Part shown: positions 3,001 to 20,690 of the stretch, piece after piece | How positions within the stretch are numbered: position 1 is the first letter of the stretch | Layout: each line of letters begins with the position of its first letter | Assembly: GCA_035280325.1 (NCBI GenBank) | Contig: DATEFZ010000075.1 | Span: 1 to 36,844 of the forward strand | Length of the DNA stretch: 36,844 nucleotides | Source of the DNA: Casimicrobiaceae bacterium | GTDB taxonomy: Bacteria > Pseudomonadota > Gammaproteobacteria > Burkholderiales > Casimicrobiaceae | Direction of reading: 5' to 3' | Notes under the pieces: model-generated | Told to the model about the DNA's origin: nothing | Databases searched by the model: none | Seen by the model: the letters and a program-made list of their open reading frames with translations, nothing else | Program-made: the position numbers and the translations under genes

Positions 3001-5886
3001 GATCTGCCGATCGTGCTGTTGCGGGTCGCCGACATCGCCAACATCGACCTGGTGCGGCAGATGGTGCAGGCGCACGCCTACTGGCGGCTGAAGGGACTGT
3101 CGGTCGACCTGGTCATCTGGAACGAGGATCACGGCGGATACCGGCAGCTCCTGCAGGATCAGATCATGGCGCTGATCGCGGCGCGCTTCGAGGCGCCGCT
3201 GATGAACCGTCCCGGCGGCATCTTCGTGCGTCGCGGCGACCAGATCCCCGAGGAGGATCGCGGACTGCTCGAATCGGTCGCGCGCGTGATCATCACCGAC
3301 AGCAAGGGCACGCTGGCCGACCAGGTCGCCGGACGCGCGCTGCTCGAGCCGCGCACGCCTCGGCTGGTGCCCGGTCGCGAGCTGCGCGCCGAGCCCGCAG
3401 AGACGGCGCCGGCACCTGCGACGCTGCTCCTCGGCAACGGGCTCGGTGGATTTTCCGCCGACGGATCCGAATACGTGATCACCACCGGCGCCGACCGGAC
3501 AACACCGCTGCCGTGGGTGAACGTGCTCGCCAACCCGCAGTTCGGCAGCATCGTCTCCGAAAGCGGCGGCACCTATACCTGGAGCGAGAACGCGCACGAG
3601 TATCGCGTCACGCCGTGGAGCAACGATCCGGTCAGCGACGCCTGCGGCGAGGCGTATTACCTGCGTGACGAGGAGAGCGGTCATTTCTGGTCGGCCGCGC
3701 CGCAGCCGGCGCCCGGCCGCGGGCCGTACGTCACCCGGCACGGCTTCGGCTACACGGTGTTCGAGCACAGCGAGGACGGCATCGCCTGCGAGCTGTGGGT
3801 CTTCGTCGCCCGCGACGCTCCGCTCAAGTTCGCCACGCTCAAGGTGCGCAATGCCTCGGCGCGGACGCGACGGATCACGGTGACAGGATTCGTCGAATGG
3901 GTGCTCGGCGACCTGCGGGCAAAGACCGCGATGCACATCGTGACCCAGCGCGATGCAAAGACCGACACGCTGTTCGCGCGCAATGCCTACAGCGCCGACT
4001 TCAGCGAACGGGTGGCGTTCTTCGACGTCGACGACGTGAATCGGACCTCGACCTGCGATCGCACCGAGTTCATCGGCCGCAACGGCTCATTGGCGGCCCC
4101 GGCGGCGCTCTCGCGCACGCGGTTGTCGGGCCGGTCGGGCGCGACGCTCGATCCCTGCGCGGCGATCCAGGTCAGGCTGGACATCGAGGCGCTGGGCGAG
4201 CGCGAGGTGACTTTCCGGCTCGGCGTCGGACGCGATGCCGATGAAGCAAGAGCGCTGGCACAGCGCTGGCGCGGCGCGACCACCGCGCGCGCGGCGCTCG
4301 ACCAGGTCCGCCGGCAGTGGCGGCACATGCTCGATGCGGTGCAGGTGACGACGCCCGACCCGGCGCTCGACGTGCTTGCCAACGGCTGGCTGCTCTACCA
4401 GACGCTGGCCTGCCGGGTGTGGGGACGCAGCGGATTCTATCAATCGGGCGGCGCGTTCGGCTTTCGCGACCAGTTGCAGGACGTGCTCGCACTCATCCAT
4501 TGCGACCCGCAGACGACGCGGGCCCAGCTCTTGCTGTGCGCGAGCCGCCAGTTCGTCGAGGGTGACGTCCAGCACTGGTGGCATCCTCCCTCCGGCCGCG
4601 GCGTGCGCACGCAATGCTCGGATGACTATCTGTGGCTGCCGTTCGCCACCGCGCGCTACGTGCTCGCCACCGGAGACAGGGGAGTGCTCGACGAGGCCGC
4701 GACTTTCCTGCACGGCCGGCCGTGCAACCCGGGCGAGGATTCGTATTACGACCTGCCGGCGCGCTCGACCGAGACGGCGAGCCTCTACGAGCACTGCGTG
4801 CGAGCGATCAGGCACGGCTTCCGATTCGGCCGTCACGGGCTGCCGCTGATGGGGTCCGGTGACTGGAACGACGGCATGAATCTGGTCGGCATCGGCGGCG
4901 AAGGCGAAAGCGTCTGGCTCGCCTTCTTCCTGCGGGCGGTGCTCGCACGGTTCGCCAGGCTCGCACGCTCGCGCAACGACGAAGATTTTGCCCGGCAATG
5001 CGACGACAAGAGCGCCGAGCTCGCCACCAGCATCGAGCGGCATGCCTGGGACGGGCAATGGTATCGGCGCGCCTTTTTCGACGACGGCACGCCGCTGGGC
5101 TCGGCGGAGAACCTGGAATGCAGGATCGATTCGATCTCGCAAAGCTGGTCGGTGCTGGCGGGGAGCGTCGATCCCGAGCGCTCGCGCGCGGCGATGACGG
5201 CGGTCGACGAGCAGCTGGTCAAGCGCGACCACGCGTTGATCGAGCTCCTGACGCCGCCGTTCGATCGATCGGCGCAGTATCCCGGCTACATCCGCGGCTA
5301 CGTGCCCGGCGTGCGCGAGAACGGCGGCCAGTACACCCACGCGGCGATCTGGTCGGCGCTGGCGTTCGCCGGATTGAACGACGGCGTCCGCGCCTGGGAG
5401 CTCGCCGCGATGATCAATCCGGTCAATCACGCGCGCACGGCCGACGACGTCGCCGTCTACCGCGCCGAGCCCTACGCGATCGCCGCCGACGTCTACGCGC
5501 TGCCGCCGCACACCGGCCGCGGCGGCTGGTCGTGGTATACCGGCTCCGCAGGATGGATGTACCGCCTGATCGTCGAATCGCTGCTGGGTATCGAGCTCGC
5601 AGCCGACAAGCTCCGCTTCGCGCCGTGCCTGCCGCTGCCGTGGCCGGAATTCAGCGTCCGCTATCGTTACCGCGAGACGATCTACCGCATTACCGTGTCG
5701 CAGGACGAAGCCGCGACAACGGGCGTGTGGCTGGACGGCCGGCGCCAGGCTGACGGTGCCATCGCGCTGGCCGACGATCGGGTCGAGCACGAGGTCCGCG
5801 TCGTCGTCGCCACTGCGCCGCACCCGGCCCCGCCCGAGGCAACGGAAACGCCCGCTGCCATCAACAGCGGATCGTCGGCGCCGTGA
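1..5886 (+). CDS. ndvB: Cyclic beta-1,2-glucan synthase (NdvB/ChvB/Cgs type), 5'-truncated by the window edge; about 1961 C-terminal codons including the GH94 phosphorylase-like domain
   Basis: Frame 1 is open from nt 1, with no stop before the listed Met at 115, through the stop at 5884-5886. The translation carries GH94-type hallmarks (GGAFGFRDQLQD, GSGDWNDGMN, WYTGSAGWMYRL). A hydrophobic LLLLWFVSPALAWWIS segment lies at the very start. The size fits the synthases of more than 2800 aa. Confidence 0.85.
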   Translation, partial: AAAAWLRAAHESSLPVATPLLLLWFVSPALAWWISRTLVPRPAALSAEQTAFLRKLARRTWSFFEAFVGAADNHLPPDNYQEVPVGTIAHRTSPTNMGLALLADLAAYDFGYLPAGRLLERIGASLDTMRSLDKHQGHFYNWYDTQTLQVLAPRYISAVDSGNLAGHLSTLREGLLALPDDRIVAPQIFAGMVDTARVLADSLPDDAPAAVDRLQRDLASASEAPPATLAATRLCLDRLQTAIAAAESALAAHDGDESTPSAEALRWAQALARQCHSAKDDIDLLAPWLALTSLGGIEAGLPELAAIPTLRELTHLAPAVVPHLERLSSNAAVATRERLDEIARLVALGVTHARERVAATTELAAHCEELARMDFRFLYDRRRRLFTIGYNVDQRERDKSYYDLLASEARVASFVAIAQGQVPQENWFALGRRLTIAGGRPILLSWSGSIFEYLMPLLVMPTYENTLLDDTCRAAVERQISYGRQLGVPWGMSESCYNAVDASLNYQYRAFGVPGLGLKRGLADDLVIAPYATVLSLMIAPEAACLNLQRLAAEGLAGQFGLFEAIDYTPSRVPRGQTSAVVRSFMAHHQGMSLLALDHLLLDRPMQKRFVSDPLFQATLLLLQERIPKAVTFLPQVAALTGVRAGPSEVEVPARLIPSPSTPTPETQLLSNGRYHVLVTGAGGGSSRWKDLALTRWREDTTCDQWGTFCYIRDVASGEFWSTAYQPTAKPADRYEAIFSEGRAEFRRRDHGLDAHTEIAVSPEDDIELRRLRIINRSRTRRVIELTTYAEIVLAPPAADALHPAFSNLFVQTEIAGDLQAILCTRRPRSPEERAPWAFHLMAAHGVTPTDVSYETDRMRFVGRGASPRAPRAMREAGPLSGTAGPVLDPIAAIRMRVSLDPEQTATIDMVYGVAETREAALGLVGKYLDARLAHRVIELGWTHAQVVLRQINASDADARLYARLANSIVFGNGSLRADPGVAARNRRGQSGLWAYSISGDLPIVLLRVADIANIDLVRQMVQAHAYWRLKGLSVDLVIWNEDHGGYRQLLQDQIMALIAARFEAPLMNRPGGIFVRRGDQIPEEDRGLLESVARVIITDSKGTLADQVAGRALLEPRTPRLVPGRELRAEPAETAPAPATLLLGNGLGGFSADGSEYVITTGADRTTPLPWVNVLANPQFGSIVSESGGTYTWSENAHEYRVTPWSNDPVSDACGEAYYLRDEESGHFWSAAPQPAPGRGPYVTRHGFGYTVFEHSEDGIACELWVFVARDAPLKFATLKVRNASARTRRITVTGFVEWVLGDLRAKTAMHIVTQRDAKTDTLFARNAYSADFSERVAFFDVDDVNRTSTCDRTEFIGRNGSLAAPAALSRTRLSGRSGATLDPCAAIQVRLDIEALGEREVTFRLGVGRDADEARALAQRWRGATTARAALDQVRRQWRHMLDAVQVTTPDPALDVLANGWLLYQTLACRVWGRSGFYQSGGAFGFRDQLQDVLALIHCDPQTTRAQLLLCASRQFVEGDVQHWWHPPSGRGVRTQCSDDYLWLPFATARYVLATGDRGVLDEAATFLHGRPCNPGEDSYYDLPARSTETASLYEHCVRAIRHGFRFGRHGLPLMGSGDWNDGMNLVGIGGEGESVWLAFFLRAVLARFARLARSRNDEDFARQCDDKSAELATSIERHAWDGQWYRRAFFDDGTPLGSAENLECRIDSISQSWSVLAGSVDPERSRAAMTAVDEQLVKRDHALIELLTPPFDRSAQYPGYIRGYVPGVRENGGQYTHAAIWSALAFAGLNDGVRAWELAAMINPVNHARTADDVAVYRAEPYAIAADVYALPPHTGRGGWSWYTGSAGWMYRLIVESLLGIELAADKLRFAPCLPLPWPEFSVRYRYRETIYRITVSQDEAATTGVWLDGRRQADGAIALADDRVEHEVRVVVATAPHPAPPEATETPAAINSGSSAP

Positions 5887-7988: not shown

Positions 7989-9231
7989 TCAGTAGGTCTC
8001 GATGTGGAGCCGGCTCTTGGCCAGGAGCCCGGCCTTGAGCGCGCCCCAGTCCAGGCCGTGCTCGGCGCAGACGTCGCGGAAGGCGTCGAGAACACCCTGC
8101 TCCATGCCCTTGAGCCCGCAGAGGTAGATGTAGCAGTCGTCGTCACGCAGCAGCCGCGCCACCTTGTCGCCGCGCTCGCGGATCCGGTGCTGCACGTAAG
8201 TCTTCGGCTCGCCGGGAACGCGCGAAAAAGCGAAGTTGATGTCGATGAACTCCTTCGGCAGCTTCTGCAGCGGCCCGAAGTACGGCAACTCGTCCTGCGC
8301 CCGCGCGCCGAAGAAAAGCAGCAGCTCGCCGGCCTGTCCAGCGGCGCGCAGTCGCCGCCTTCGCTCGGTCATCGCCCGCATCGGCGCCGACCCGGTTCCG
8401 GTGCAGATCATCATCAGCGACGATCCCGGATGGTTGGGCATCAGAAAGCTCGTCCCGTACGGCCCGACTACCCGCACCCGGTCGCCGACCCTGGTGTCGC
8501 ACAGGTAGTTCGACGCGCTGCCGGAGACCGGCCTGCCCTGGTGATCCTCGGTCACCCGCTTCACCGTCAGCGCGACGTTGTTGTAGCGCGGGCGCTCGCC
8601 GTCGCGCGGCGATGCGATCGAGTACAGCCGCACGTAATGTGGCTTGCCGTCGGCGTCGGCACCCGGCGGCACGACCCCCAGCGTCTGGCCCTCGAGCACA
8701 GGAAACGCCGTATTGCCGAAGTCGAGGACGATGTGGCGAATGTCGGCCGACGCGCCGTCGGCGGTCAGCCGGTAGTTGCCGGTGATGGTCGCGATAGCCG
8801 GCTTGGCGAGCGAGTACAGGTTGACCGCGGGCGGCGCGGCCGACCACGGCGCCGACGCGTGGCCGCCCTCGCCGGCCGATGCGATCTCGGTCAGCGCCCT
8901 GACTTCGGTCGGAACCTCCTCGTCGCCGGCGGCCAGGTCGACCGGCGTCGGCAGCGCGTCCCACGAAAGCTGCTGGTCCAGCGTGTACGGGTCGCTCTTG
9001 CGAACCTGGTGCCAGTGGTCGATCGCGCCGGTCGGACACGGCGAGACGCAGGCGTTGCAGCCATTGCAGACCGCGAAGTCGACGACGTAGTTTCGCGCAT
9101 CGTGACTGATCGCATCGATCGGACAGGTCGACTCGCAGGTGTTGCAGCGGATGCAGACCTCGGGATCGATCAGGTGCTGACGCGCGTATTCCGCGTCCGG
9201 TGCCCCGGTAACGGCCGCCGCGACCGCGTCT

Positions 9232-9248
<17 letters not shown>
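7989..9248 (-). CDS. boxA: Benzoyl-CoA oxygenase component A (BoxA; 2x[4Fe-4S] ferredoxin + FNR-like reductase)
   Basis: Two CxxCxxCxxxCP clusters ([24 protein letters not shown]) are followed by a ferredoxin-NADP reductase-like module ([18 protein letters not shown]). Length is 419 aa. It lies immediately downstream of boxB, and its ATG lies 17 nt inside the boxB 3' end. Confidence 0.88.
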
Positions 9249-10662
<1,414 letters not shown>

Positions 10663-10691
10663 CGCCGACTCCTGAATCGTTGCCGACCGGT

Positions 10692-12377
10692 TCAGACCCG
10701 CTGCCAGTCGAATCGCGCCCGGTTGCCGGTGCCGAAGACCTTCAGTGCACCGGACTCGCCGACCGCGTTCGGGCGCACGAAGATCCAGTTCTGCCACGCC
10801 GACAGCCGGCCGAAGATGCGCGTCTCCATCGTCTCGGCGCCGCCGAAGCGCAGGTTCGCTTCCATGCCGGTCAACGCATCCGGCGACATGCTGGCGCGCT
10901 CCTCCAGCACGATGCGGATCTCGTCGTCCCAGTCGATCTCGTCCAGCGCCGCGGTGACGAGACCCAGCGCCACAGCCTCCGCGGCGGAGACCCTGCGCCC
11001 GATCGCGGCGCGAACTTTGCCCACTGCATCGGCGTCGCGGTAGAACCGCGCCTCGATGCGCGAGATGCCGTCGACGCGCGGATAGGCGCCGAAATTCTGT
11101 CCGGACAGGGCGAGCTGCGGCGCGTTGGCGGCGTCGTCGCCGGCGTCGAGCATGTAGGCGCGGTCGGCGGCGAGCGCCAGCTCGAGCAGGCTGCCGGCGA
11201 ACGCCGAGCCGGGCTCGATCAACGCGATCAGCGTGCGCGAGCTGACGTCGAGGCGCGCCAAGCAGCGCCTGAGCTGGCCGATCGTCTCGCGCACGAACCA
11301 GTGCTTGCCGTGCGCGGCCATCGCGGCGTCGGCGGCCAGCACATGGTCGGCGTCGCCCTGGGTCTTCAGTATCCAGGTGCCGACGTCGAGCCGGTTGGTA
11401 CGCAGCATCAGGATGGCGTCGTCGAGCTCGCGGCCCATCTGCAGCGGCCACCAGCGCGCGCCCTGCGCCACGATGTCGTCGATATCGCTGGCCGGGGCGC
11501 CGGCCGGCGCCTTGACGGTCAGCGTCGCCCGGCGTGACGCCTCGTCGATCTCGGCGTCGACTAAGCCGTAGTGGTAGCCGCGTTGGTCGATCGTGCGTTC
11601 CAGCGGCGTCAGCAGGATGCCGCCGGCGTCGGCCGGGCGATCGCTTTGCGCGGCCAGCTCCAGCGCGCGCCGCCTGACGTGGGCGGCGAATTCGCTCGGC
11701 TTGACGAGCTCGTCGACCAGCCGCCAATCCTTCGCCCGCTGCCCGCGCACGCCTTCGGTCGTGGTGCAGAAAATATCGGCCAGGTCGTGGCGCACCCGAC
11801 GCTTGTCGGTGACGCGGGTCAGGCCGCCGGTCCCCGGCAGCACGCCGAGCAGCGGCACTTCGGGCAGGCTCACCGCCGACGAGCGGTCGTCGACCAGAAC
11901 AATCTCGTCGCAGGCGAGCGCCATCTCGTAGCCGCCTCCGGCGGTCGTGCCGTTGCAGGCGGCGATGAACTTGAGTCCCGAGTACCGGCTCGCGTCCTCG
12001 ATGCCGTTGCGCGTCTCGTTGGTGAACTTGCAGAAGTTCACCTTCCAGGCGTGCGACGATTGCCCGAGCATGAAGATGTTCGCGCCCGAGCAGAACACGC
12101 GATCCTTGCCGCTGGTCAGCACGACCGTGCGCACCTCCGGGTGCTCGAAACGGATGCGCTGGATGGCGTCGGCGAGCTCGATGTCGACGCCCAGGTCGTA
12201 CGAATTGAGCTTGAGCTTGTAGCCGGGACGGATGCCGGCGTCCTCGTCCACGTCGATCGAGAGCGTCGCGACCGCGCCGTCGAAGGCGAGCTTGTAGTGC
12301 CGATAGCGGTCGGGATGCGCCTGGTAGTCGACGGGCTGCGGCGTTGCCGTCTCGGCGCTCGCGGTAGCGCTATCCAT
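10692..12377 (-). CDS. boxC: 2,3-epoxybenzoyl-CoA dihydrolase / benzoyl-CoA-dihydrodiol lyase (BoxC, crotonase superfamily)
   Basis: 561 aa with a crotonase-type core (VVLTSGKDRVFCSGANIFML). Position is directly upstream of boxB. An AAGGAG RBS lies 7 nt upstream, inside the boxR 3' end. Confidence 0.88.
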   Translation of the reverse strand: MDSATASAETATPQPVDYQAHPDRYRHYKLAFDGAVATLSIDVDEDAGIRPGYKLKLNSYDLGVDIELADAIQRIRFEHPEVRTVVLTSGKDRVFCSGANIFMLGQSSHAWKVNFCKFTNETRNGIEDASRYSGLKFIAACNGTTAGGGYEMALACDEIVLVDDRSSAVSLPEVPLLGVLPGTGGLTRVTDKRRVRHDLADIFCTTTEGVRGQRAKDWRLVDELVKPSEFAAHVRRRALELAAQSDRPADAGGILLTPLERTIDQRGYHYGLVDAEIDEASRRATLTVKAPAGAPASDIDDIVAQGARWWPLQMGRELDDAILMLRTNRLDVGTWILKTQGDADHVLAADAAMAAHGKHWFVRETIGQLRRCLARLDVSSRTLIALIEPGSAFAGSLLELALAADRAYMLDAGDDAANAPQLALSGQNFGAYPRVDGISRIEARFYRDADAVGKVRAAIGRRVSAAEAVALGLVTAALDEIDWDDEIRIVLEERASMSPDALTGMEANLRFGGAETMETRIFGRLSAWQNWIFVRPNAVGESGALKVFGTGNRARFDWQRV

Positions 12378-13215
12378 CCCTGGTCTCCTTCGGCTCGGTC
12401 GCTGCCACTGCGTCGCGCAGCTTGCGCAGGCTTAGCTGCGGCGATTCGCCGGAGGTTTCGACGACGGCGTCGGCTTTGCGATACAACGGCTCGCGCGAAG
12501 CGAGTATCCGTCGCAGATCGTCCATCGCCTCGGCGTGTCCCGCCATCGGCCGGGTGTCGCCCTGCGCCAGCACGCGGGCCATGTGCTCTTCCGGCCTGGC
12601 TTTCAGCCAAACCGTGTAGCAATGGGCTCGCAGCAGATTGAATGCCTCCTCGTCGGCGACGACGCCGCCGCCGGCGACGATGACGGCGCGATCGTGCTCG
12701 GCGACCACTCGCTGCAGCGCCTTGCATTCGATCCGCCGGTAGCCGGCCTGGCCGTACAGCGCGATCACTTCGCCGACCGGCAGGCCGGTGTCGCGCGTCA
12801 CTTCGCGATTGAGCTCGACCAGCGGGATGCGCAGGTCTTTCGCCAGCAGCGCGCCGAGCGTCGATTTGCCGGCGCCGCGCAATCCGATCAGCGCGACACG
12901 CCGGCGCCTCGCCCGCAACCGCCCGGCCGCGTCGCGCTCGTCGGCGGGCAACAACTCGGCCGCCGAGACGCCCAACGCAGCGGCGACCCGGCGAAGCAGC
13001 ATCACCGAGATGTTTCCGTCGCCGGACTCGAGGTGCCCGAGATAGCGTTCGGAAACGCGCGAGTCGCGCGCCAGCAGCTTGCGCGACATCGTCCGCGCCT
13101 CGCGCAACTCGCGCACCCGCCGGCCCAGCGCCCGCAGGAATTGCGCGTCGGCGACCGAGCCGGTTTCGGACAGCGTCTCGGGAAGCGTTCGGGTGGCGGC
13201 GAAAGCGGGCGGCAT
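12370..13215 (-). CDS. boxR: BoxR/BzdR-type transcriptional regulator (XRE HTH + shikimate-kinase-like effector domain)
   Basis: N-terminal XRE HTH (MSRKLLARDSRVSERYLGHLESGDGNISVMLL). C-terminal shikimate kinase-like P-loop (IGLRGAGKSTLG). 281 aa. The stop codon overlaps the boxC start by 8 nt. Confidence 0.85.
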   Translation of the reverse strand: MPPAFAATRTLPETLSETGSVADAQFLRALGRRVRELREARTMSRKLLARDSRVSERYLGHLESGDGNISVMLLRRVAAALGVSAAELLPADERDAAGRLRARRRRVALIGLRGAGKSTLGALLAKDLRIPLVELNREVTRDTGLPVGEVIALYGQAGYRRIECKALQRVVAEHDRAVIVAGGGVVADEEAFNLLRAHCYTVWLKARPEEHMARVLAQGDTRPMAGHAEAMDDLRRILASREPLYRKADAVVETSGESPQLSLRKLRDAVAATEPKETRDG

Positions 13216-13271: not shown

Positions 13272-13389
13272 GCATTATCTTACCTCGCCATCGCGCGTAC
13301 CGCCCGCGACGACGCGCCCAACTAAACGTGCGACAGAAGTGCGCAGCGCTCGAGTCGCCCGCCGACGCTCGGGCGTTTTGCGCGAGGCC

Positions 13390-13818
13390 CTAATCCGGCA
13401 GCGTTTCGCCCGACCCGCCCATCTCCTTGGGCATGTCCTTCATCTTGGGCAAACCGTCGCGTATGCGAAGCACCGATTCCTGGTAGTTGACGTGCAGCTT
13501 CGGCTCGTGGCGATAGCTCGGAATCGTCGCCGCGTACACGTCGACGACGCCCCACAGCGGGTGGTCGGTCAGCAGGTGCCCGCCGCAGGTCTTGCAGAAC
13601 TTGCGGTGGCTCTTGTCCGTCTTGTGATAGACGCCGACGTTGCCTTCGCCTTTGGTGAACTTAACCGCATCGGGCTTCCAGAGGCTGAAAGCGTTGACCG
13701 GCGCCGCTGCCCAGCTGCGGCACGATGCGCAATGGCAGTATCCGGCGGCGACGGGTTCGCCGCTGACCGCGACCTCGACCGCGCCGCAAAAGCAATTGCC
13801 CTTGTGAGTCTGGTTCAT
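13390..13818 (-). CDS. GFA-family (glutathione-dependent formaldehyde-activating / CENP-V-like) zinc protein
   Basis: 142 aa with the characteristic Cys pattern (CFCGAV..., CHCASCR, FCKTCGGHL). Confidence 0.8.
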   Translation of the reverse strand: MNQTHKGNCFCGAVEVAVSGEPVAAGYCHCASCRSWAAAPVNAFSLWKPDAVKFTKGEGNVGVYHKTDKSHRKFCKTCGGHLLTDHPLWGVVDVYAATIPSYRHEPKLHVNYQESVLRIRDGLPKMKDMPKEMGGSGETLPD

Positions 13819-13887
13819 GTCGTCCCCTTGTCGAAAATGCCGATCCGCTCGGATCGGCGCGAGCCAGTGGTCGTACGATCGCTCGCT

Positions 13888-14322
13888 TTACGTGTTCGTG
13901 CGGCTACGCAGACCGACCTTGCGTCGGCCGCCGATTCCCTGCGCTCTGAGGATTGTACGTCCGGTGCGAATGTTCGTTTCCGGCGCGTCGCCGTCCGGCG
14001 TAACGACCTGCGCGGCGCCGGCCGCCACCGCGCCCGCCGCGGCGTCGGCGGCAACCTGCGGTGGCGCGAGATCCGCCCCCGCGGCGAATGCCTCCGGCGC
14101 GGTCGCGGTCGCTTTCTCGGCCATAACGGCATACGGATCGGCGCTGAGCGAGTCGAGTTTCGCCGGCAGCACGACCATCGCGCTGAGCGTGATCGCCGCC
14201 AGGGCCACCGCGACAAAGGCCAGTGCGGCCCGCGGTGTCGACGGTTGGTATCCGTCGATACGATGATCGTTGCGCGCAGGCGAAGCATCGTGTCGACGAG
14301 ACTCTTGCAACAGCAGATGCAT
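13888..14322 (-). CDS. Hypothetical single-pass membrane-anchored Ala-rich protein
   Basis: ATG at 14322 with GGAGAA about 10 nt upstream. One clear TM helix (AALAFVAVALAAITLSAMVVL) followed by an Ala/Pro-rich tail. I recognise no family. Lies downstream of promoter copy A. Confidence 0.4.
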   Translation of the reverse strand: MHLLLQESRRHDASPARNDHRIDGYQPSTPRAALAFVAVALAAITLSAMVVLPAKLDSLSADPYAVMAEKATATAPEAFAAGADLAPPQVAADAAAGAVAAGAAQVVTPDGDAPETNIRTGRTILRAQGIGGRRKVGLRSRTNT

Positions 14323-14408
14323 GGACAGTTTTCTCCAAACTGGGTTTTCGCGATCGCTCGCGTTCGCTGCCGGTGGCGCCGGAAGGAGGGCGCGCGCAGG
14401 CAACCATC

Positions 14409-14471
14409 GCAGTCTAGGGCGCGGATGTGGCAGGCGGATTGCGCCGGCCGGTCATTCTTGTTTCGTTTGTT
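14409..14471 (-). promoter_or_regulatory. Promoter copy A: AT-rich box AACAAACGAAACAA, 41 nt, then TAGACTGC (putative -10), facing the 13888-14322 gene
   Basis: The minus strand reads AACAAACGAAACAA (14471-14458), 41 nt, then TAGACTGC (14416-14409). The same 14-mer, the same 41-nt spacing and the same 8-mer occur at 18681-18743 on the plus strand. The spacers share TC(C/G)GCCTGC at identical offsets. Confidence 0.55.
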
Positions 14472-14493
14472 GCGATGCGCGGCGGCGCATCGC
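14472..14493 (-). terminator. Perfect GC hairpin just after the kinase stop (possible operon-end terminator or insulator)
   Basis: GCGATGCGC-GGCG-GCGCATCGC, a 9-bp stem, lies 14 nt downstream of the stop at 14507. On the transcribed strand it is followed by an A-rich run, not a U-rich one, so it is not a canonical intrinsic terminator. Confidence 0.3.
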
Positions 14494-14506
14494 GAGGACA
14501 GCGACG

Positions 14507-16846
14507 CTAGCGCGGCGGCGCCGCCTCGCCGTCGAGCGCGAGCTCGGCGACGACGCGACGCACTTCGTTGGGCAGGAAGGGCTTCTCGATCACCGGACGG
14601 CCGCTTTGCGAGACGAACTCGCGAAGCGTCGTCGCCAGCGTATCGCCGGTCACGAACACGACCCGCGCGCCAAGTCCGGGCCAGCGCCGCTCGATCTCCA
14701 GGTAGAGCGCGCGGCCATCCAGATCGGGCATGCGGATGTCGGTCAGAATTGCATCGTAGCGATCGACCGCCATGTGCTGCAGCGCTTCGCGGCCCGAGGC
14801 GACCGCCACCACGCGGTGATGCGCGGCCATCAGGATGTCGGCCAGCGTTTCGCGAATCTCCGCCTCGTCGTCGATGATCAGTATCTTTCGCTGGCGGCTG
14901 CCCGACCTCGGCGACGACGCGGCCTCGATCGGGCCGATGCTGACGGTGCCGACCGGCAAGGTGACGGTGAACTCGGCGCCGCCCTGCGGCGGACATTCGA
15001 CCGAAAGCGTGCCCTGGTGCGCCTCGACGATGCCCAGGCTGACCGCCAGTCCGACGCCCAGGCCGATTCCGGTCGGCTTGGTCGTGAAGTACGGCTCGAA
15101 TATCCGCGCCCGCTGCTGCTCGGGTATGCCCGGTCCGCTGTCGGCGACGGTGACGCGCACCAGCTCGGCGGCCGCGTCGTAACGGCTGGTCACCCGGATG
15201 CGCCGCGGCCCGGGATGGTCCTGCAGCGCCTGCTGCGCGTTGATGATCAGGTTGAGCAGCACCTGGTGCAGCTGATCGGCGTCGGCCTGGATCAGCGGAA
15301 TGTCGCCGGCGAGATCGAGCGTCACCTGGATGCTGCTCGTTCGCACCGGATAGGCGGTGATGTCGAGCGCCGCCGCCACGACGTCGTTGATCGCCACCGG
15401 ACCGCGCTCGGGGCGCTGTTGCCGCGCCATGGCGAGAAACGTCCGCACGATGCGCGCGCAGCGCTCGGCGGCGGTGCGAATCTTCTGCGCGGCGGCCTGC
15501 GTCGGCGCGTCTCCCTGCTCCTCGAGCAGCACCGCCCGCGCGACGACGACCGACAACGGATTGTTGAGCTCGTGCGAGACGCCGGCCAGCAGCGAGCCGA
15601 GGGCAGCCAGCTTTTCCCGCTGGTAGAGCGACTCGCGCTGCCGCGCCAGCTCTTCGGCCGATCGCTTCTTCTCGGTGATGTCGCGCGCCAGAGCCAGTAT
15701 CCGGTCCTGACCGCCGATGGTGACGCGCTTGACGAACACCTCGTACCACCGCAGGGTGCCGTCCTTGCTCCTGCCGTGCCATTCGATCTGCAGCTGCTCG
15801 CCGGCGGCGGCCCGCGCCACCAGCGCCACCGCGTCCTGTTGCGTGTACGGCCGCTCGCCGGAGCCGAGCGATCCGATCTCGAGATCCTTCAGCTCGTCGC
15901 GCCTGTAGCCAAACGCGGCGCAGGCTCTCGGATTGGCGTCGACGATGGCGCCAGTGTCGAGGTCGTGCACGAAAATGGCATCCTCGGCGGCATCGAAGAT
16001 CGCCCGATAGCTCGCCTCGGACACGCGCAACGCCTCGGCGGCGCGCATGCGCTCGGCGATGTCGTCGCGCAGCCGGGTCTGGGTGTTGGCGACTTCGCGC
16101 GCCATCGCATCGAAGGCGCGCCCCAGCCGGCCCAGCTCGTCGTTGCCCTTGATGTCGCTCCGGGCCTTGAGATCGCCGGCGGCGAGCTGCTCGGCGGCGT
16201 GCACCAGCTGCGCGGTGCGGCGGGTAAGCAGGAAATGGAACACCAGCCACATCGCCAGCGCCAGCGCGGTGACCCATCCCGCCCAGTACAGCGATTGCTG
16301 CTCGACCTGGGCGCGGGCCTCGGCTTTGTAGCGCTTGAGGTCGTAGCCCAGGAACAGGCTGCCGGTCCGCGATGGACGCGGCTCGTCGCCGGCGCTGCCC
16401 ATCAGGACGCCGGCGTAGCCGAGCAGCTCGTCGCGCCTGGAGTCGACGGTGATCCCCGAGCGACGCTGGCGGATGGCTCCGGTCGCCCGGTCGAGATCGA
16501 ATTGCGGCAATACTTCCGCCACCTGCCGGCCGAGCCACGCCCGCCGCGTCGCTGCGACGACGGTATTCATGTCGTCGGTCAGCACGGCGAGGCTGACGTC
16601 GTGGTTGTGCGCCAGCACCGCGATCTCGTGCTGCGCCCCCGCCTGGTCGCCCTTGAGCAGCAGGTACTCGAGGGTGCTTTGCAGGCGCGACATCTCCTGC
16701 GCCAGATGCTTGCGGCCGTCCTCTTCCGCCCCGCGCTCGGCTTCCGGGACGTGATAGAGCAGGTTCACCGTGCTGAGCGCCGCGGCGAAGCCGAGCAGGA
16801 TCAGCGGCACGGTGAACTTGAGCGTCGCCGGCGCCTGCAGGTTCAT
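14507..16846 (-). CDS. Hybrid sensor histidine kinase (2 TM + periplasmic domain, HAMP, PAS, HisKA, HATPase_c, C-terminal receiver)
   Basis: ATG at 16846 overlaps the upstream stop (ATGA). TM1 is FTVPLILLGFAAALSTV and TM2 is WAGWVTALALAMWLVFHFLL. The H-box is LAGVSHELNNPL and the G-boxes are DSGPGIP and GIGLGVGL. The receiver is KILIIDDE...ILTDIRMPDLDG. No Hpt domain is visible. Confidence 0.9.
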   Translation of the reverse strand: MNLQAPATLKFTVPLILLGFAAALSTVNLLYHVPEAERGAEEDGRKHLAQEMSRLQSTLEYLLLKGDQAGAQHEIAVLAHNHDVSLAVLTDDMNTVVAATRRAWLGRQVAEVLPQFDLDRATGAIRQRRSGITVDSRRDELLGYAGVLMGSAGDEPRPSRTGSLFLGYDLKRYKAEARAQVEQQSLYWAGWVTALALAMWLVFHFLLTRRTAQLVHAAEQLAAGDLKARSDIKGNDELGRLGRAFDAMAREVANTQTRLRDDIAERMRAAEALRVSEASYRAIFDAAEDAIFVHDLDTGAIVDANPRACAAFGYRRDELKDLEIGSLGSGERPYTQQDAVALVARAAAGEQLQIEWHGRSKDGTLRWYEVFVKRVTIGGQDRILALARDITEKKRSAEELARQRESLYQREKLAALGSLLAGVSHELNNPLSVVVARAVLLEEQGDAPTQAAAQKIRTAAERCARIVRTFLAMARQQRPERGPVAINDVVAAALDITAYPVRTSSIQVTLDLAGDIPLIQADADQLHQVLLNLIINAQQALQDHPGPRRIRVTSRYDAAAELVRVTVADSGPGIPEQQRARIFEPYFTTKPTGIGLGVGLAVSLGIVEAHQGTLSVECPPQGGAEFTVTLPVGTVSIGPIEAASSPRSGSRQRKILIIDDEAEIRETLADILMAAHHRVVAVASGREALQHMAVDRYDAILTDIRMPDLDGRALYLEIERRWPGLGARVVFVTGDTLATTLREFVSQSGRPVIEKPFLPNEVRRVVAELALDGEAAPPR

Positions 16847-17817
16847 CGGGTCAGGGCAGCCAGTGGTTCCGGTGCGAGCAGCGGCTCGATCTCGAATCCG
16901 GCGCGCAGCAGTTTGGCATCGACCATCAGCGCCATCAGCCGACGGCCGGTCACCGCCAGCTCGGGCGTCGCGCCGCCCAGCATCCGCAGATTCTCGTCGC
17001 GCGACGGGATGCGCAGGCCCCGCTGGGCCTGCAGGAACTGCTCGCCGGTGGTCTGCTGCCGGATGCCCATGCGCCGCGCCGCATCGACCGGGCTGCGCTC
17101 GATGTAGTCGATCGCGTCGAACCAGCCGACGAGCAGCGCCTGCAGCGCCTTGGGCTGCCTCTCGATGACGCTGTCGCGCACCGCCAGCAGATCGACGATC
17201 TCGCCCGGAATCTGGGTGCTGTCGAACAGCGTCGCGGCGCCGGCGCGCAGGAACTGGGCGCGATACGGGTCGAACGTGACCGCGCCGTCGACCTGCCCTT
17301 TTTCGAACGCCCCCGGCTGCTCGTTCGATTCCAGGTGCACCGGGTTGACGTCGCCCGCCTGCATGCCGTTGATGGCGAGCGCGCGGCTCAGCACGAAGGC
17401 GCCCAGCGCGCTGCTCTCGACGGCGACCGACTTGCCCTTGAGGTCGCGCATCGAACGCATGCCGCGGCGGCCGACGACGACGTCGGCGCCGTGCGAGACG
17501 TCGACGACCAGGATGATCCGCGGCCGGAATCCGTCGGCCGCGAGCTCGAAGGTCTCGTCGAGGCTGATCACCATGCCGTCGATCGCCTGGTTGCGAAAGG
17601 CGCGCAGCACTTCGCTCGCCGACGGATATTCGACCAGTTGCACCGTCGCCGGGTCCAGCCGGCCCAGCTCGCGCGCCAGGTACAGCGGCTCGCTGCCGAT
17701 CCAGACGTTGGTCCCGATGCGTAATGCCGTTTCCGGCGCCCGCATGCATCCGGCAAGGAGCAGCGCCAGCGCAACGCCAATCAGGCCTCGCAAAAAGTGC
17801 CGCGGATTCGCGCTCAT
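16843..17817 (-). CDS. Periplasmic solute-binding lipoprotein, NMT1/SsuA/TauA-like (NitT/TauT family)
   Basis: MSANPRHFLRGLIGVALALLLAGC carries an LLAGC lipobox. The body resembles COG0715-type SBPs (LRIGTNVWIGSEPLYLA...). No permease or ATPase gene is adjacent. Preferred start is 17817, 7 nt after the RR stop; the ORF-track start at 17850 would overlap the RR gene. Confidence 0.8.
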   Translation of the reverse strand: MSANPRHFLRGLIGVALALLLAGCMRAPETALRIGTNVWIGSEPLYLARELGRLDPATVQLVEYPSASEVLRAFRNQAIDGMVISLDETFELAADGFRPRIILVVDVSHGADVVVGRRGMRSMRDLKGKSVAVESSALGAFVLSRALAINGMQAGDVNPVHLESNEQPGAFEKGQVDGAVTFDPYRAQFLRAGAATLFDSTQIPGEIVDLLAVRDSVIERQPKALQALLVGWFDAIDYIERSPVDAARRMGIRQQTTGEQFLQAQRGLRIPSRDENLRMLGGATPELAVTGRRLMALMVDAKLLRAGFEIEPLLAPEPLAALTR

Positions 17818-17824
17818 CGTGCGC

Positions 17825-18532
17825 TCACGCTCCGTCCGGAACGAAGACATAACCCTCGTTACGCACCGTTCTGATGAACCTCGGATGCTCGGGATCGGGC
17901 TCGATCTTCTTGCGCAGCCGCATGATGCGCAGGTCCACGCTGCGGTCGAACGGGTCCCAGCTTCGCTGATTGAGATTGAGGATCCGCTCGCGCGAAAGCG
18001 CCCGGTTGGGATGCTCGGCCAGCGCCTTGAGCAGGTCGAACTCGAGCGGCGACATCGCGACCTCGGCCCCCTTGTCGTCGGTCAGCCGGTGGGCAGCGAG
18101 GTCGAGCACGCAGCGGCCGATGCGCACCCGCGCCGCGCCGAGCTCGGCGCGAGCCGCCGACGACGTGCGGCGCAGCACGCTCTTGACGCGCGCCAGCAGT
18201 TCGCGCGGGTCGAACGGCTTCGGGATGTAGTCGTCGGCGCCCATCTCGAGTCCGACGATGCGATCGACGACCGTCGACGCGGAAGTCAGCATCACGATCG
18301 CGATTCCCGCGTAGCGCTCGCGCAGGTGCCGCGCCAGCGCCAGCCCATCCTCGCCCGGCATGTGGATGTCGACCAGCGCCAGGTCGATCGCATGCCGCGC
18401 CGCCTCCGCCTTGGCCGTGGCGGCGCTCTCGACCGCCATGACCGCGTAGCCGTGGCGAACAAGGTATTCCTCCAGCACCTCGCGCACCTCCGGCTCGTCG
18501 TCGACGACCAGGATGGTGGCTTTCGCGCTCAC
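17825..18532 (-). CDS. OmpR/PhoB-family response regulator
   Basis: GTG at 18532 with GGAG 11 nt upstream. Receiver is ILVVDDEPEVREVL...LALVDIHMPGEDG. Winged-helix output is LSPLEFDLLKALAEHPNRALSRERIL...IRTVRNEGYVF. About 235 aa. Confidence 0.9.
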   Translation of the reverse strand: MSAKATILVVDDEPEVREVLEEYLVRHGYAVMAVESAATAKAEAARHAIDLALVDIHMPGEDGLALARHLRERYAGIAIVMLTSASTVVDRIVGLEMGADDYIPKPFDPRELLARVKSVLRRTSSAARAELGAARVRIGRCVLDLAAHRLTDDKGAEVAMSPLEFDLLKALAEHPNRALSRERILNLNQRSWDPFDRSVDLRIMRLRKKIEPDPEHPRFIRTVRNEGYVFVPDGA

Positions 18533-18680
18533 GGACTGACCCACTCCTTCGGTCCTCGGCAGGCGACCGATCGCTCCCTCGGCGGGCGGATGGCAAATCA
18601 TACAGCTCCCCTGACAACGATGCTCCGGACCAAGCATAGATCGACTCGGCACCGATTTCACGCGCGCCGTGGCGACATGA

Positions 18681-18743
18681 AACAAACGAAACAAAACGCC
18701 CCCGGCACTGAAGTCGGCCTGCTGCGCGCGCTCGCTAGACTGC
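18681..18743 (+). promoter_or_regulatory. Promoter copy B: AACAAACGAAACAA, 41 nt, then TAGACTGC, facing the membrane-protein/GNAT/DUF1127 operon
   Basis: The plus strand has the 14-mer at 18681-18694 and TAGACTGC at 18736-18743. The putative -10 ends 30 nt before the GTG at 18772. With flanks, the box reads as tandem GAAACAAAC-GAAACAAAAC. Confidence 0.55.
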
Positions 18744-18771
18744 ACTGCAACAGAGCTCGCAGGAGATCGCA

Positions 18772-19122
18772 GTGGATTCGCGTAACGAGATATTCCGCCC
18801 GGCGCCGGCGCCGCTTCGCGCGCTGAGCATGTCCGCGATCTGGCTGCATATCGGGTTGGTCGGCGCTACCACGGTCGCCGCCGGGCTGCTGGAACTGACC
18901 GAAGGCGCCGCCGTCGCGTGGGGGCTCGCGCTGGTGCTGGCCGGCGGCGCGTTGGCGATGTTCGGATGGCGCCGGGGACTCGCCACCCTGCAACGGCTCG
19001 ATCCGTCGGCGACCATCGTCGCCGATGCGTTTGTCACGGCCAGACGCATCGCCGAGCGGCCGCCCGCGACCGGAAGCGGCCGCGCGGTCGCGATCTCCGC
19101 GCCCCTCGAGCAGGAACCATGA
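18772..19122 (+). CDS. Small two-TM membrane protein (hypothetical)
   Basis: GTG start with AGGAG 6 nt upstream. Two hydrophobic helices (IWLHIGLVGATTVAAGLL, VAWGLALVLAGGALAMFGW). The stop overlaps the GNAT start (ATGA). Confidence 0.5.
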   Translation: MDSRNEIFRPAPAPLRALSMSAIWLHIGLVGATTVAAGLLELTEGAAVAWGLALVLAGGALAMFGWRRGLATLQRLDPSATIVADAFVTARRIAERPPATGSGRAVAISAPLEQEP

Positions 19123-19655
19123 TGATGACCTTCGCCATCCAGCACCTCAACGAGTGCATACGCGGCGCTCTCGTCGGCCACTTTCTGGCCCTGCCGCTCA
19201 AGGACCGCAGCCTGCGCTTCGGCAGCGCGCTGGCGCCCGCCGTCATCGCCCGCTACGTCGACGGGATCGATTTTCGCCGTGACACGGTGTTCGGCGTTCA
19301 CGACGCGGAGCTGGTGCTGATCGGCGTCGCGCACCTTGCGATCGAGCACGGCGTCGCCGAGCTGGCGCTCTCGGTGCTGCCCGGGCATCGTCGATGCGGT
19401 ATCGGCAGCGCGCTCGTGAGGCGCGCCGTGACGTATGCGCGCAAGCGCGGCACATCGCGGCTGTTCATGCGCTGCCGATCGGAAAACGCATCGATCGTGC
19501 GCATGGCGCAGCGGTTCGACATGGACATCGTCGCCAGCGGCGGCGACGCCGAGGCGCGGCTCGAGCTGCGAGCCCCACCGCGCGCGGCGCAGGTATTCGA
19601 ACGCGCCTTGTCGTTCGTCTTCCGCGCCGCCGAGCCGACTCGCTCGCTTCCGTAA
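19119..19655 (+). CDS. GNAT-family N-acetyltransferase
   Basis: About 178 aa. Acetyl-CoA motif A-like segment LSVLPGHRRCGIGSALVRRAV. Start is one of three consecutive ATGs at 19119-19127. Confidence 0.7.
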   Translation: MMMTFAIQHLNECIRGALVGHFLALPLKDRSLRFGSALAPAVIARYVDGIDFRRDTVFGVHDAELVLIGVAHLAIEHGVAELALSVLPGHRRCGIGSALVRRAVTYARKRGTSRLFMRCRSENASIVRMAQRFDMDIVASGGDAEARLELRAPPRAAQVFERALSFVFRAAEPTRSLP

Positions 19656-19680
19656 ACCGATCCAGGATCGAAGCCGAATC

Positions 19681-20220
19681 ATGAACGACACCAACGCAAG
19701 TCTTCTCGAAAGCCCCGCTTATCGTTTGCAGCAGGCCGCCCGGGCTCATCGCTCGTTCACGCTGGCCGAAATCGTCATCGCGGCGATCAACGCCGCGTTG
19801 GTCGCCACGCTGCGAACATATGCGCGGTACCGCCAATATCGCAAGGCTTCGGCCATCCGCGACGTGCTGCGCGACCTCGACGACCGCACCTTGCGCGACA
19901 TCGGCATCGATCGCAGCGAAATAGCCTCGGTGGCGGCGGAATTGACCGGCCAGGCCGAGCCTTCACGCATGCACCCCTGGCGAGCCGCGCAGGAGCTCCC
20001 GGCGGCGTGGAAACCGCCCGCTGTCAGGCTGGCAGAGCCGATCGGTCGTTCCGAGGGCATCGATCGACCGGTTGCGGCCGACGCCTCCCGCCGCGGTGCA
20101 CTCCGCGACGCCGTCGAGACGCGACGCCAGCTGTTGCTCGCGCTGGAGCTCGAAACCATGCGCCAGGCGCCGCCTCAGGCCACGCCTAGTCAAGACAGCG
20201 AGGCGATATACAGCGGATAG
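19681..20220 (+). CDS. DUF1127 domain protein with an unusually long C-terminal extension
   Basis: Contains the DUF1127 signature LRDLDDRTLRDIGIDRSEI. Third-position GC stays high through the roughly 90-aa extension, which supports real coding. Confidence 0.6.
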   Translation: MNDTNASLLESPAYRLQQAARAHRSFTLAEIVIAAINAALVATLRTYARYRQYRKASAIRDVLRDLDDRTLRDIGIDRSEIASVAAELTGQAEPSRMHPWRAAQELPAAWKPPAVRLAEPIGRSEGIDRPVAADASRRGALRDAVETRRQLLLALELETMRQAPPQATPSQDSEAIYSG

Positions 20221-20294
20221 GGCGCGACATAGACGGTGACGCTGTGGTCGAGCGCGCCGTCCAGAACGGCCGCGGCAAAGCTGTTCGCTTTCAT
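20190..20294 (-). CDS. Possible 34-aa small protein (MKANSFAAAVLDGALDHSVTVYVAPYPLYIASLS)
   Basis: Strong RBS AAAGGAGAA 5 nt upstream of the ATG at 20294. About 79% GC at third positions. Its 3' end overlaps the convergent DUF1127 gene by 31 nt. No family recognised. Confidence 0.3.
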   Translation of the reverse strand: MKANSFAAAVLDGALDHSVTVYVAPYPLYIASLS

Positions 20295-20690
20295 GACGTT
20301 CTCCTTTCGCGGTTGAGATCCATGCCGCGTCATACCCGGTCTCGCCCGCTTTTGTTCTCCGGCAAATATCGCCACCGCCCAAGTCAAGTTTGTCGCCCGT
20401 GCACGGCTTGCGTGTTCTGGACCGAGAACGTGCTCGCGCCGGCGTGATCGCCGTTATTCCCTCGGGCATAAGCGGCGAGCGAGCCCCGTCTGGCGGTCAT
20501 GCGACGTGCAGCAATGGAAGGGACAACGCGGAATCGCGCCTGGTGCAAGGCCGGCGCCACCACCTTCGGGATCGCGCGATCGCTCGGCGTCACTCCGGTC
20601 CGACGACCGCCGGCGATGCCGTCGCAGCCGTTTTTTCCGATCCGCACCGGATCGATCCTGTTGAACGACAACACCACGAAGGAGCAAGTC

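Follow-up and report, generated by a model that had tools for sequence, protein, structure and literature searches.

A 36,844-nucleotide stretch of DNA from a Casimicrobiaceae bacterium (GenBank assembly GCA_035280325.1, contig DATEFZ010000075.1, positions 1 to 36,844), referred to below as the window, was analyzed with regard to a pair of short promoter-like elements, copies A and B, that bracket the operon of a two-component system. Three minus-strand genes lie between the two copies and encode a response regulator, a binding protein, and a kinase. The regulator (17825-18532), which possesses Response_reg and Trans_reg_C domains, belongs to the OmpR/PhoB family and is presumed to be an activator. 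The binding protein (16843-17850) was assigned by domain and structure searches to the NMT1_2 or SsuA-like substrate-binding lipoproteins and is a presumed co-sensor, and the kinase (14507-16822) is a hybrid histidine kinase composed of two transmembrane segments with a periplasmic loop, followed by HAMP, PAS, HisKA, HATPase, and receiver domains; a domain search detected no HPt domain in it. In comparisons with solved structures, the regulator matched generic family members alone (MtrA, BaeR, RegX3, and KdpE), and the binding protein matched distant binders of sulfonate, nitrate, and taurine. On the plus strand, copy B is followed by an operon (18772-20220) for a 116-aa membrane protein (18772-19122), a GNAT acetyltransferase (19119-19655), and a DUF1127 protein (19681-20220), and the same families follow the site in relatives. 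On the minus strand, copy A is followed by two genes (13390-14325) encoding an Ala-rich membrane-anchored protein (13888-14325), which has no family match, and a GFA-family protein (13390-13818); in relatives, the Ala-rich protein and/or GFA is found downstream of copy-A-type sites.

The two copies of the element, AACAAACGAAACAA-N41-TAGACTGC, are inverted relative to each other and occupy 14409-14471 on the minus strand (copy A) and 18681-18743 on the plus strand (copy B). The 14-mer AACAAACGAAACAA lies at 14458-14471 (minus strand) and 18681-18694 (plus strand), and no third match was found in the 36.8-kb window with up to two mismatches. Shuffled sequences gave an expectation of 0.01 for the 14-mer, and two matches were reached in none of 100 shuffles. 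Because the G+C content is 65-73% throughout the window (69% in the genome), the A-rich 14-mer stands out from its surroundings. The 8-mer TAGACTGC, located at 14409-14416 (minus strand) and 18736-18743 (plus strand), starts exactly 41 nt past each 14-mer; taken alone it is weak evidence, since 0.29 matches were expected and two were reached in 4 of 100 shuffles. The two 41-nt spacers share TC(C/G)GCCTGC at an identical offset. A weight matrix derived from the sites of relatives returned these two sites in the window, with 80 and 74 bits, and scored the next best position at -17. Each copy faces a gene start: 30 nt separate the TAGACT of copy B from the GTG at 18772 with its upstream AGGAG, and copy A lies 35 nt past the kinase stop codon and 85 nt ahead of the ATG at 14325. 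All of these features, namely the inverted 14-mer pair, the 8-mer at a fixed distance, the common spacer motif, and the position of each copy before its target gene, had been pointed out in a preliminary description of the window made from the sequence alone, and they proved to be exact.

The paired arrangement is conserved in relatives. Seven orthologous loci were fetched via the binding protein alone, and in all seven the order of regulator, binding protein, and kinase genes is kept; the membrane-protein/GNAT/DUF1127 genes diverge from the operon on one side, and genes for small proteins and GFA lie on the other. All seven also carry the box-N41-TAGACT element at both ends of the operon, and several possess extra copies ahead of GNAT, alpha/beta-hydrolase, or DUF1127 genes. 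By independent gene calls in these orthologous loci, a co-oriented gene begins 19-225 nt downstream of 18 of the 19 sites. To cover the element without the use of the motif itself, eighty more metagenome loci were picked by binding-protein homology only, and a softened weight matrix run over this unbiased set gave clearly bimodal scores. A site diverging from the regulator gene was found in 55 of the 57 unbiased loci that cover the upstream region concerned, a site just past the kinase gene was found in 29 of the 41 that cover that region, and 29 additional sites occur in the flanks. The outward placement of the elements at both operon ends, as first proposed for the window, is also supported in relatives. 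In the unbiased loci, the box lies anywhere between 82 and 359 nt from the start of the regulator gene but keeps a fixed distance to TAGACT.

An exact-pattern scan of public genomes for AACAAAYGAAACAA-N41-TAGACT, with one genome per species, found more than 118 stretches, where about two chance matches were estimated at uniform base composition. Among the matches listed, about five seem to be due to chance (in Flavobacterium, Hymenobacter, a Woesearchaeote, and two others) and are without any of the conserved features that had not been selected for. The remaining matches listed come from some ninety assemblies, almost all of which are metagenome-assembled genomes (MAGs) of Casimicrobiaceae or Burkholderiales, in addition to two Aromatoleum isolates; among the matches listed, each assembly holds one to three strict matches. 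The search of related genomes that had been suggested for the element has therefore yielded the composite element with fixed spacing in about a hundred of them. For the binding protein, the nearest homologs (81-100% identity) were found in soil metagenomes and in MAGs labeled Casimicrobiaceae or Betaproteobacteria.

Comparison across relatives gave the full design of the element, YGAAAC-N3-YGAAAC-AAAA-N12-YGAART-N4-CTGCCGCA-N9-TAGACT, in which the spacing is near-invariant. Positions that were not used in the search are nevertheless conserved in 125 sites, including TGA before the box and AA after it, and further unselected conserved blocks are (T/C)GAA(G/A)T at +28 to +33 and CTGC(C)GCA at +38 to +45. 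The stretches separating these blocks are variable, and conservation ceases two to three bases past TAGACT. A conserved G recurs at -2, 7, 18, 29, and 40, that is, with spacings of 9, 11, 11, and 11. The blocks recognized in the preliminary description are real, but the element extends beyond them, in that the YGAART block at the -35 position and the CTGCCGCA block had been seen only in part. Among the unbiased loci, 104 boxes are followed by the middle block, 100 of them at a distance of 28 nt, and in the four boxes at 27 nt the -10 hexamer is displaced by one as well; since the -10 hexamer shifts along in these cases, the middle block and the -10 hexamer form one rigid unit, the core promoter. 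Some perfect TGAAACAAACGAAACAAAA boxes lack the YGAART block and the -10 hexamer (L006 5997(-), L162, L194, L195, and L196), and the fact that perfect boxes occur without a promoter part speaks for the box as a separate module bound by protein. In L196, L194, and L006, a complete site lies about 90-330 bp away from the bare box; in two of these loci (L196 and L006), it is the bare box that lies toward the regulator gene. Such bare boxes could serve in autoregulation or be the remains of promoters.

Of 102 unique unbiased sites, 70 carry TAGACT as the last hexamer, and the variants include TAGAGT, TACAGT, TACACT, TAAACT, and similar hexamers. The initial T, the following A, and the final T are found at frequencies of 0.97, 0.99, and 0.99 over the 102 sites, and TAnnnT is kept in nearly all variants, which is the signature of a sigma-70 -10 region and agrees with the earlier reading of TAGACT as a -10 hexamer. 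A -35 hexamer resembling TTGACA 16-18 bp upstream of the -10 region is lacking (the preliminary description had called the -35 region non-canonical): a consensus scan predicted no promoter in 13300-20400, and the sole conserved base in the -35 window of the logo is the T at +33. A -10 region without a -35 region is what an activator-dependent promoter would be expected to look like.

Mapped onto the window, copy B is the more complete of the two in its tandem repeats. Its distal box TGAAACAAACGAAACAAAA (18678-18696, plus strand) consists of two YGAAAC half-sites 9 bp apart and an A tract, and is presumed to be the high-affinity regulator site at about -70 to -52 from the predicted start. The proximal half-site TGAAGT (18709-18714, plus strand) occupies about -39 to -34, the normal place of a -35 region, and is followed by the spacer block CTGCTGCG (18719-18726, plus strand; family consensus CTGCCGCA) and by the -10 hexamer TAGACT (18736-18741, plus strand), with a predicted start near 18748. 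In copy A, the distal box CGCAACAAACGAAACAAGA (14456-14474, minus strand) has a weaker first half-site (GCAAC), the proximal half-site CGCAAT (14438-14443, minus strand) is a weak match to YGAART, the spacer block CTGCCACA lies at 14426-14433 (minus strand), and the -10 hexamer TAGACT (14411-14416, minus strand) predicts a start near 14404. The box had been read as tandem GAAACAAAC/GAAACAAAAC; this reading holds fully for copy B but not for copy A, in which the first unit is GCAACAAAC. The spacer block of the CTGCCGCA type is possibly a degenerate fifth half-site or the operator of a second factor. Between the kinase stop codon and the box of copy A, a perfect 9-bp hairpin, GCGATGCGC-cgcc-GCGCATCGC (14472-14493, minus strand), is present without a U tract; it does not stand out significantly from shuffled sequences (z -1.5) and could mark where the operon transcript ends.

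Based on this design and its conservation, both elements are probably sigma-70-type promoters that have no -35 region and depend on the phosphorylated form of the local OmpR/PhoB-family regulator. The regulator encoded between the copies is the most likely binder of the box because of its scores against OmpR and TorR models, the match of the half-site to the OmpR consensus, the parallel with the tor-box array, and the tight genetic linkage. The sequence design, its conservation, its link to the regulator operon, and its position ahead of genes are observed, and the mechanism proposed here adds inferences as to which protein binds, where transcription starts, in which direction regulation acts, and what is sensed. 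The substrate-binding lipoprotein would report a periplasmic ligand to the hybrid kinase, which would in turn phosphorylate the regulator. A regulator dimer could then occupy the well-conserved distal repeat YGAAAC-N3-YGAAAC at about -70 to -52, and more regulator molecules may fill weaker sites on the same face of the DNA, namely the G at +18, YGAART at +28, and possibly TGCCGC at +39. The promoter-proximal regulator would substitute for the absent -35 region and recruit RNA polymerase to the TAGACT -10 region. Copy B would drive the membrane-protein/GNAT/DUF1127 operon, and copy A would drive the genes for the Ala-rich membrane protein and GFA. Since copy B is located in the divergent region adjoining the regulator gene, it may also feed back on that gene.

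Several observations weigh against this assignment. The preliminary description had recognized a direct-repeat site for an OmpR-family regulator, and the repeats are indeed direct; however, the distal half-sites are 9 bp apart, in contrast to the 10-11 bp usual in this regulator family. All sources of the element are MAGs, except for the two Aromatoleum isolates. Some loci encode a second OmpR-type regulator. In addition, about 40% of the strict-pattern sites listed have no regulator gene within their own 8-kb block, although distant members of a regulon are to be expected; the CTGCCGCA block is conserved beyond the needs of the activator model and may point to a second factor; the G and C within TAGACT are 82% conserved, which also goes beyond what that model requires and may likewise point to a second factor; and genes for extracytoplasmic function (ECF) sigma factors follow three sites in three genomes (L019, L062, and one more, cluster 11). 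In some relatives, a secondary sigma cascade may be driven by the system.

These last four observations are also those that favor a different reader of the promoters, that is, an alternative sigma factor or a transcription factor acting on YGAART, CTGCCGCA, or TAGACTGCA, with the two-component operon as a mere neighbor or member of the regulon. The block CTGCnGCA (+38 to +45, 18719-18726 in the window) holds the mini-palindrome TGCnGCA, and CTGC is repeated 21 bp further on, within TAGACTGCA (+55 to +63, 18736-18744), an arrangement which a simple activator model leaves unexplained and another factor could account for. Nevertheless, such a replacement of the local regulator is considered unlikely. 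The regulator operon is linked to the site (55/57), whereas no sigma factor gene or other regulator gene is consistently linked, and the half-site matches the core of the OmpR consensus. Moreover, the logo does not fit the known alternatives. The consensus sequences are GG-N10-GC for sigma-54, CTTGAA-N13-15-CCCCATNT for sigma-32, and AAC-N16-17-CGT for ECF sigma factors. In the logo, no conserved GG lies 12 nt ahead of GC as in sigma-54 promoters, the spacing from TGAA to CCC is too long for sigma-32 and the T at +60 is left unaccounted for, and no CGT occurs at the ECF distance. It is possible that CTGCCGCA and the over-conserved TAGACTGCA are recognized by a second factor, which is the main reservation.

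The A-rich character of the box in a 69% G+C genome, together with its place upstream of the core promoter, would also suit a pair of constitutive promoters in which the box serves as an UP element for the alpha subunit of RNA polymerase and no dedicated regulator is involved. UP elements are located at about -38 to -59, whereas the box at about -70 to -52 lies further upstream. The C and G positions of the box are as invariant as the A positions, only a few such promoters occur per genome and they lie beside one regulator operon, and perfect boxes also occur without a promoter, so that this explanation is highly improbable.

That the copies are inverted and bracket a 4.3-kb unit could recall a mobile cassette in which the two-component operon is flanked by terminal inverted repeats, or a dispersed repeat resembling repetitive extragenic palindromic sequences or miniature inverted-repeat transposable elements. 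Neither is at all likely, because no extended inverted repeat and no transposase gene between the copies were found and the genes outside the copies are conserved together with the operon. A repeat search gave only G+C-rich chance repeats and no extended repeat past the short blocks, extra copies in the flanks run in the same direction, and neither empty sites nor target-site duplications nor copy numbers in the tens per genome were seen. Dispersion irrespective of gene starts, which the preliminary description had considered, is not what was found: the sites precede co-oriented genes (18/19), with one to three strict matches per genome among the matches listed. Finally, although a terminator scan flags a hairpin and a T-rich run on the strand opposite copy B, it is very unlikely that the element represents a structured RNA (leader, riboswitch, or small RNA) transcribed from an upstream start or off the opposite strand, because Rfam gave no matches at E<=1 and the RNAalifold consensus structure of 40 diverse sites was empty on both strands; furthermore, the conserved blocks are not mutually complementary, and conservation stops at the -10 region and not at the ribosome-binding site, with start codons 19-225 nt away.

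With the local regulator retained as the probable reader of the element, the genes that follow the sites outline a candidate regulon. A Pfam scan was applied to 140 predicted first and second genes downstream of sites; the gene calls were our own and rough, and the counts are therefore approximate. The most frequent families were DUF1127 (15 members) and alpha/beta hydrolases (about 15), followed by GFA (10), GNAT (8), S-adenosylmethionine-dependent methyltransferases (6), DUF3455 (5), DUF2917 (4), ECF sigma factors (3), and MFS_4, globin, and NnrU-like proteins (2 each). Many downstream products are small membrane proteins without a family. Relatives possess two to four sites per locus in addition to sites on other contigs, and the 4.3-Mb contig CAWBUD010000002 carries two sites 1.6 Mb apart, only one of which lies beside the operon. 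Because of this remote site and the unlinked share of the sites listed, the regulon appears small yet not confined to the locus; the compact, self-contained regulon proposed in the preliminary description therefore holds as regards its small size but is neither strictly compact nor strictly self-contained.

In an extended and more tentative form of the same interpretation, the motif could be the regulon mark of an uncharacterized system, consisting of an NMT1/SsuA-type lipoprotein, a hybrid HAMP-PAS kinase, and an OmpR-like regulator, across the widespread soil family Casimicrobiaceae and in Aromatoleum isolates (in one case plasmid-borne). This system might switch on a small group of poorly characterized genes, namely DUF1127, GNAT, alpha/beta hydrolase, GFA, methyltransferase, and DUF3455 genes, and sometimes ECF sigma, globin, and NnrU-like genes, via an unusually rigid five-position array in which the CTGCnGCA/TAGACTGCA part would be read by a second factor.

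The two cultured strains, both of which belong to Rhodocyclales, are Aromatoleum buckelii U120, in which the locus (L039) lies at 304-312 kb of plasmid pU120, and A. diolicum 22Lin (L125). Both loci contain the regulator (78% identity) and a complete site, with scores of 83 and 87, respectively. The binding protein (81%) and the kinase are also present in L039, and the L125 block holds the regulator only. The L039 site precedes the gene for a protein of 311 aa that matches no Pfam family, contains two ExxH motifs, and is possibly a diiron protein; a homolog is encoded further downstream in L125. The location of the Aromatoleum copy on a plasmid suggests horizontal transfer; a binding-protein search of a plasmid collection gave no match. 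Full-scoring sites were also found on contigs binned to unrelated phyla, namely a Rudaea MAG (L015), a Chloroflexia MAG (L124), a Terriglobales MAG (L119), and an Alphaproteobacteria MAG (L013), and the regulator genes in L015 and L124 are 77-82% identical to the window regulator. Mis-binned Casimicrobiaceae contigs are the likeliest origin of these four, with transfer as the alternative. In L089, a site at 5293(+) immediately precedes, in the same orientation, the gene for another OmpR-type regulator with 52% identity to the window regulator, which hints at cross-regulation between paralogous systems. In L007, the kinase gene (8283-10294) was called as fragments of 232 and 440 aa, and the divergent operon is fragmented as well; the system may be decaying in this locus, or the assembly may contain errors.

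The wider flanks of the window seem to be unrelated to the system and include BoxB/BoxC-like benzoyl-CoA genes, a helix-turn-helix (HTH) shikimate-kinase regulator, a GH94 glucan synthase, a cupredoxin, and a phosphoenolpyruvate mutase. At 9232-13215 on the minus strand, a PaaA/PaaC-like oxygenase (476 aa), a long protein of the enoyl-CoA hydratase family (561 aa), and a regulator with HTH_3 and shikimate-kinase domains are encoded next to each other. This trio resembles an aerobic benzoyl-CoA (box) cluster with a BoxR/BzdR-type repressor, and the weight-matrix scan of the window placed no motif site in it. The partial open reading frame at 1-5886 (plus strand; more than 1960 aa), the 5' end of which lies beyond the window, contains two GH94 domains and a glucoamylase-like domain and resembles a cyclic beta-1,2-glucan synthase or phosphorylase.

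The analysis yields a precise, testable cis-element and assigns a candidate regulon to an orphan two-component system of a soil family that is mostly uncultured and that occurs commonly in the soil metagenomes and MAG collections covered. A search of the literature on Casimicrobiaceae returned nothing on regulation. The candidate regulon ties DUF1127, DUF3455, DUF2917, GFA-like, and small membrane proteins to one signal pathway and could help to assign roles to them, and the presence of the element in the two cultured Aromatoleum strains makes binding and reporter tests feasible. The accepted view of how such systems work is unchanged.

Among the closest known systems are EnvZ/OmpR, with the ompF/ompC regulatory regions, and TorT/TorS/TorR. 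The best named NCBIfam models for the regulator are OmpR (NF007005), with 234.6 bits versus an equivalog cut-off of 331, and TorR, with 188.1 bits versus 275, and the regulator is related to both proteins and an ortholog of neither. In the classical OmpR picture, tandem sites upstream of a weak promoter are filled hierarchically. The E. coli OmpR consensus is TTTTACTTTTTG(A/T)AACATAT (PMC5559549), and its core TG(A/T)AACA matches the box half-site TGAAACA of the window. In contrast to EnvZ, the partner kinase here is of the hybrid HAMP-PAS type and is accompanied by an accessory binding protein; moreover, half-sites recur after 9 bp instead of 10, and the targets are not porins.

The TorT/TorS/TorR system of E. 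coli and Salmonella likewise combines a periplasmic binding protein, a hybrid kinase with a receiver domain, and an OmpR-family regulator. Its target operon also diverges from the regulator gene, and the boxes of its direct-repeat array are similarly strong at the distal end and weaker near the promoter. The proximal tor box overlaps the -35 region, and torR is autoregulated. The torCAD promoter has four direct-repeat tor boxes, CTGTTCATAT and the weaker CCGTTCATCC (PMC9239176). The box sequences in the window differ from these, and the distal pair is 9 bp apart instead of 10. Furthermore, the kinase scores 148.7 bits against a TorS cut-off of 676.5, so that the two are not orthologs, and it lacks a detectable HPt domain; the binding protein is of the NMT1/SsuA type (NMT1_2 and SsuA_fam matches), and the TorT model is absent from its family matches.

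At the pho box, PhoB occupies an activator site that takes the place of the -35 region and ends about 10 bp upstream of the -10 region. The YGAART...TGCCGCA stretch of the present element ends 9 bp ahead of TAGACT in a similar manner; however, its sequence differs, its proximal repeats are degenerate, it has an extra strong distal site, and the PhoB models score below cut-off. ChvE/VirA/VirG also pairs a binding protein with a kinase carrying a C-terminal receiver and an OmpR-family regulator, and the vir box TNCAATTGAAAY contains TGAAAY as well. The scores for VirG (154.6 bits versus 344) and for a VirA-like model (144.6 versus 647) are low, and the class of binding protein, the box design, and the organism group are different. 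By analogy, the promoters described here would work like those of the TorT/TorS/TorR-torCAD or EnvZ/OmpR systems while belonging to neither.

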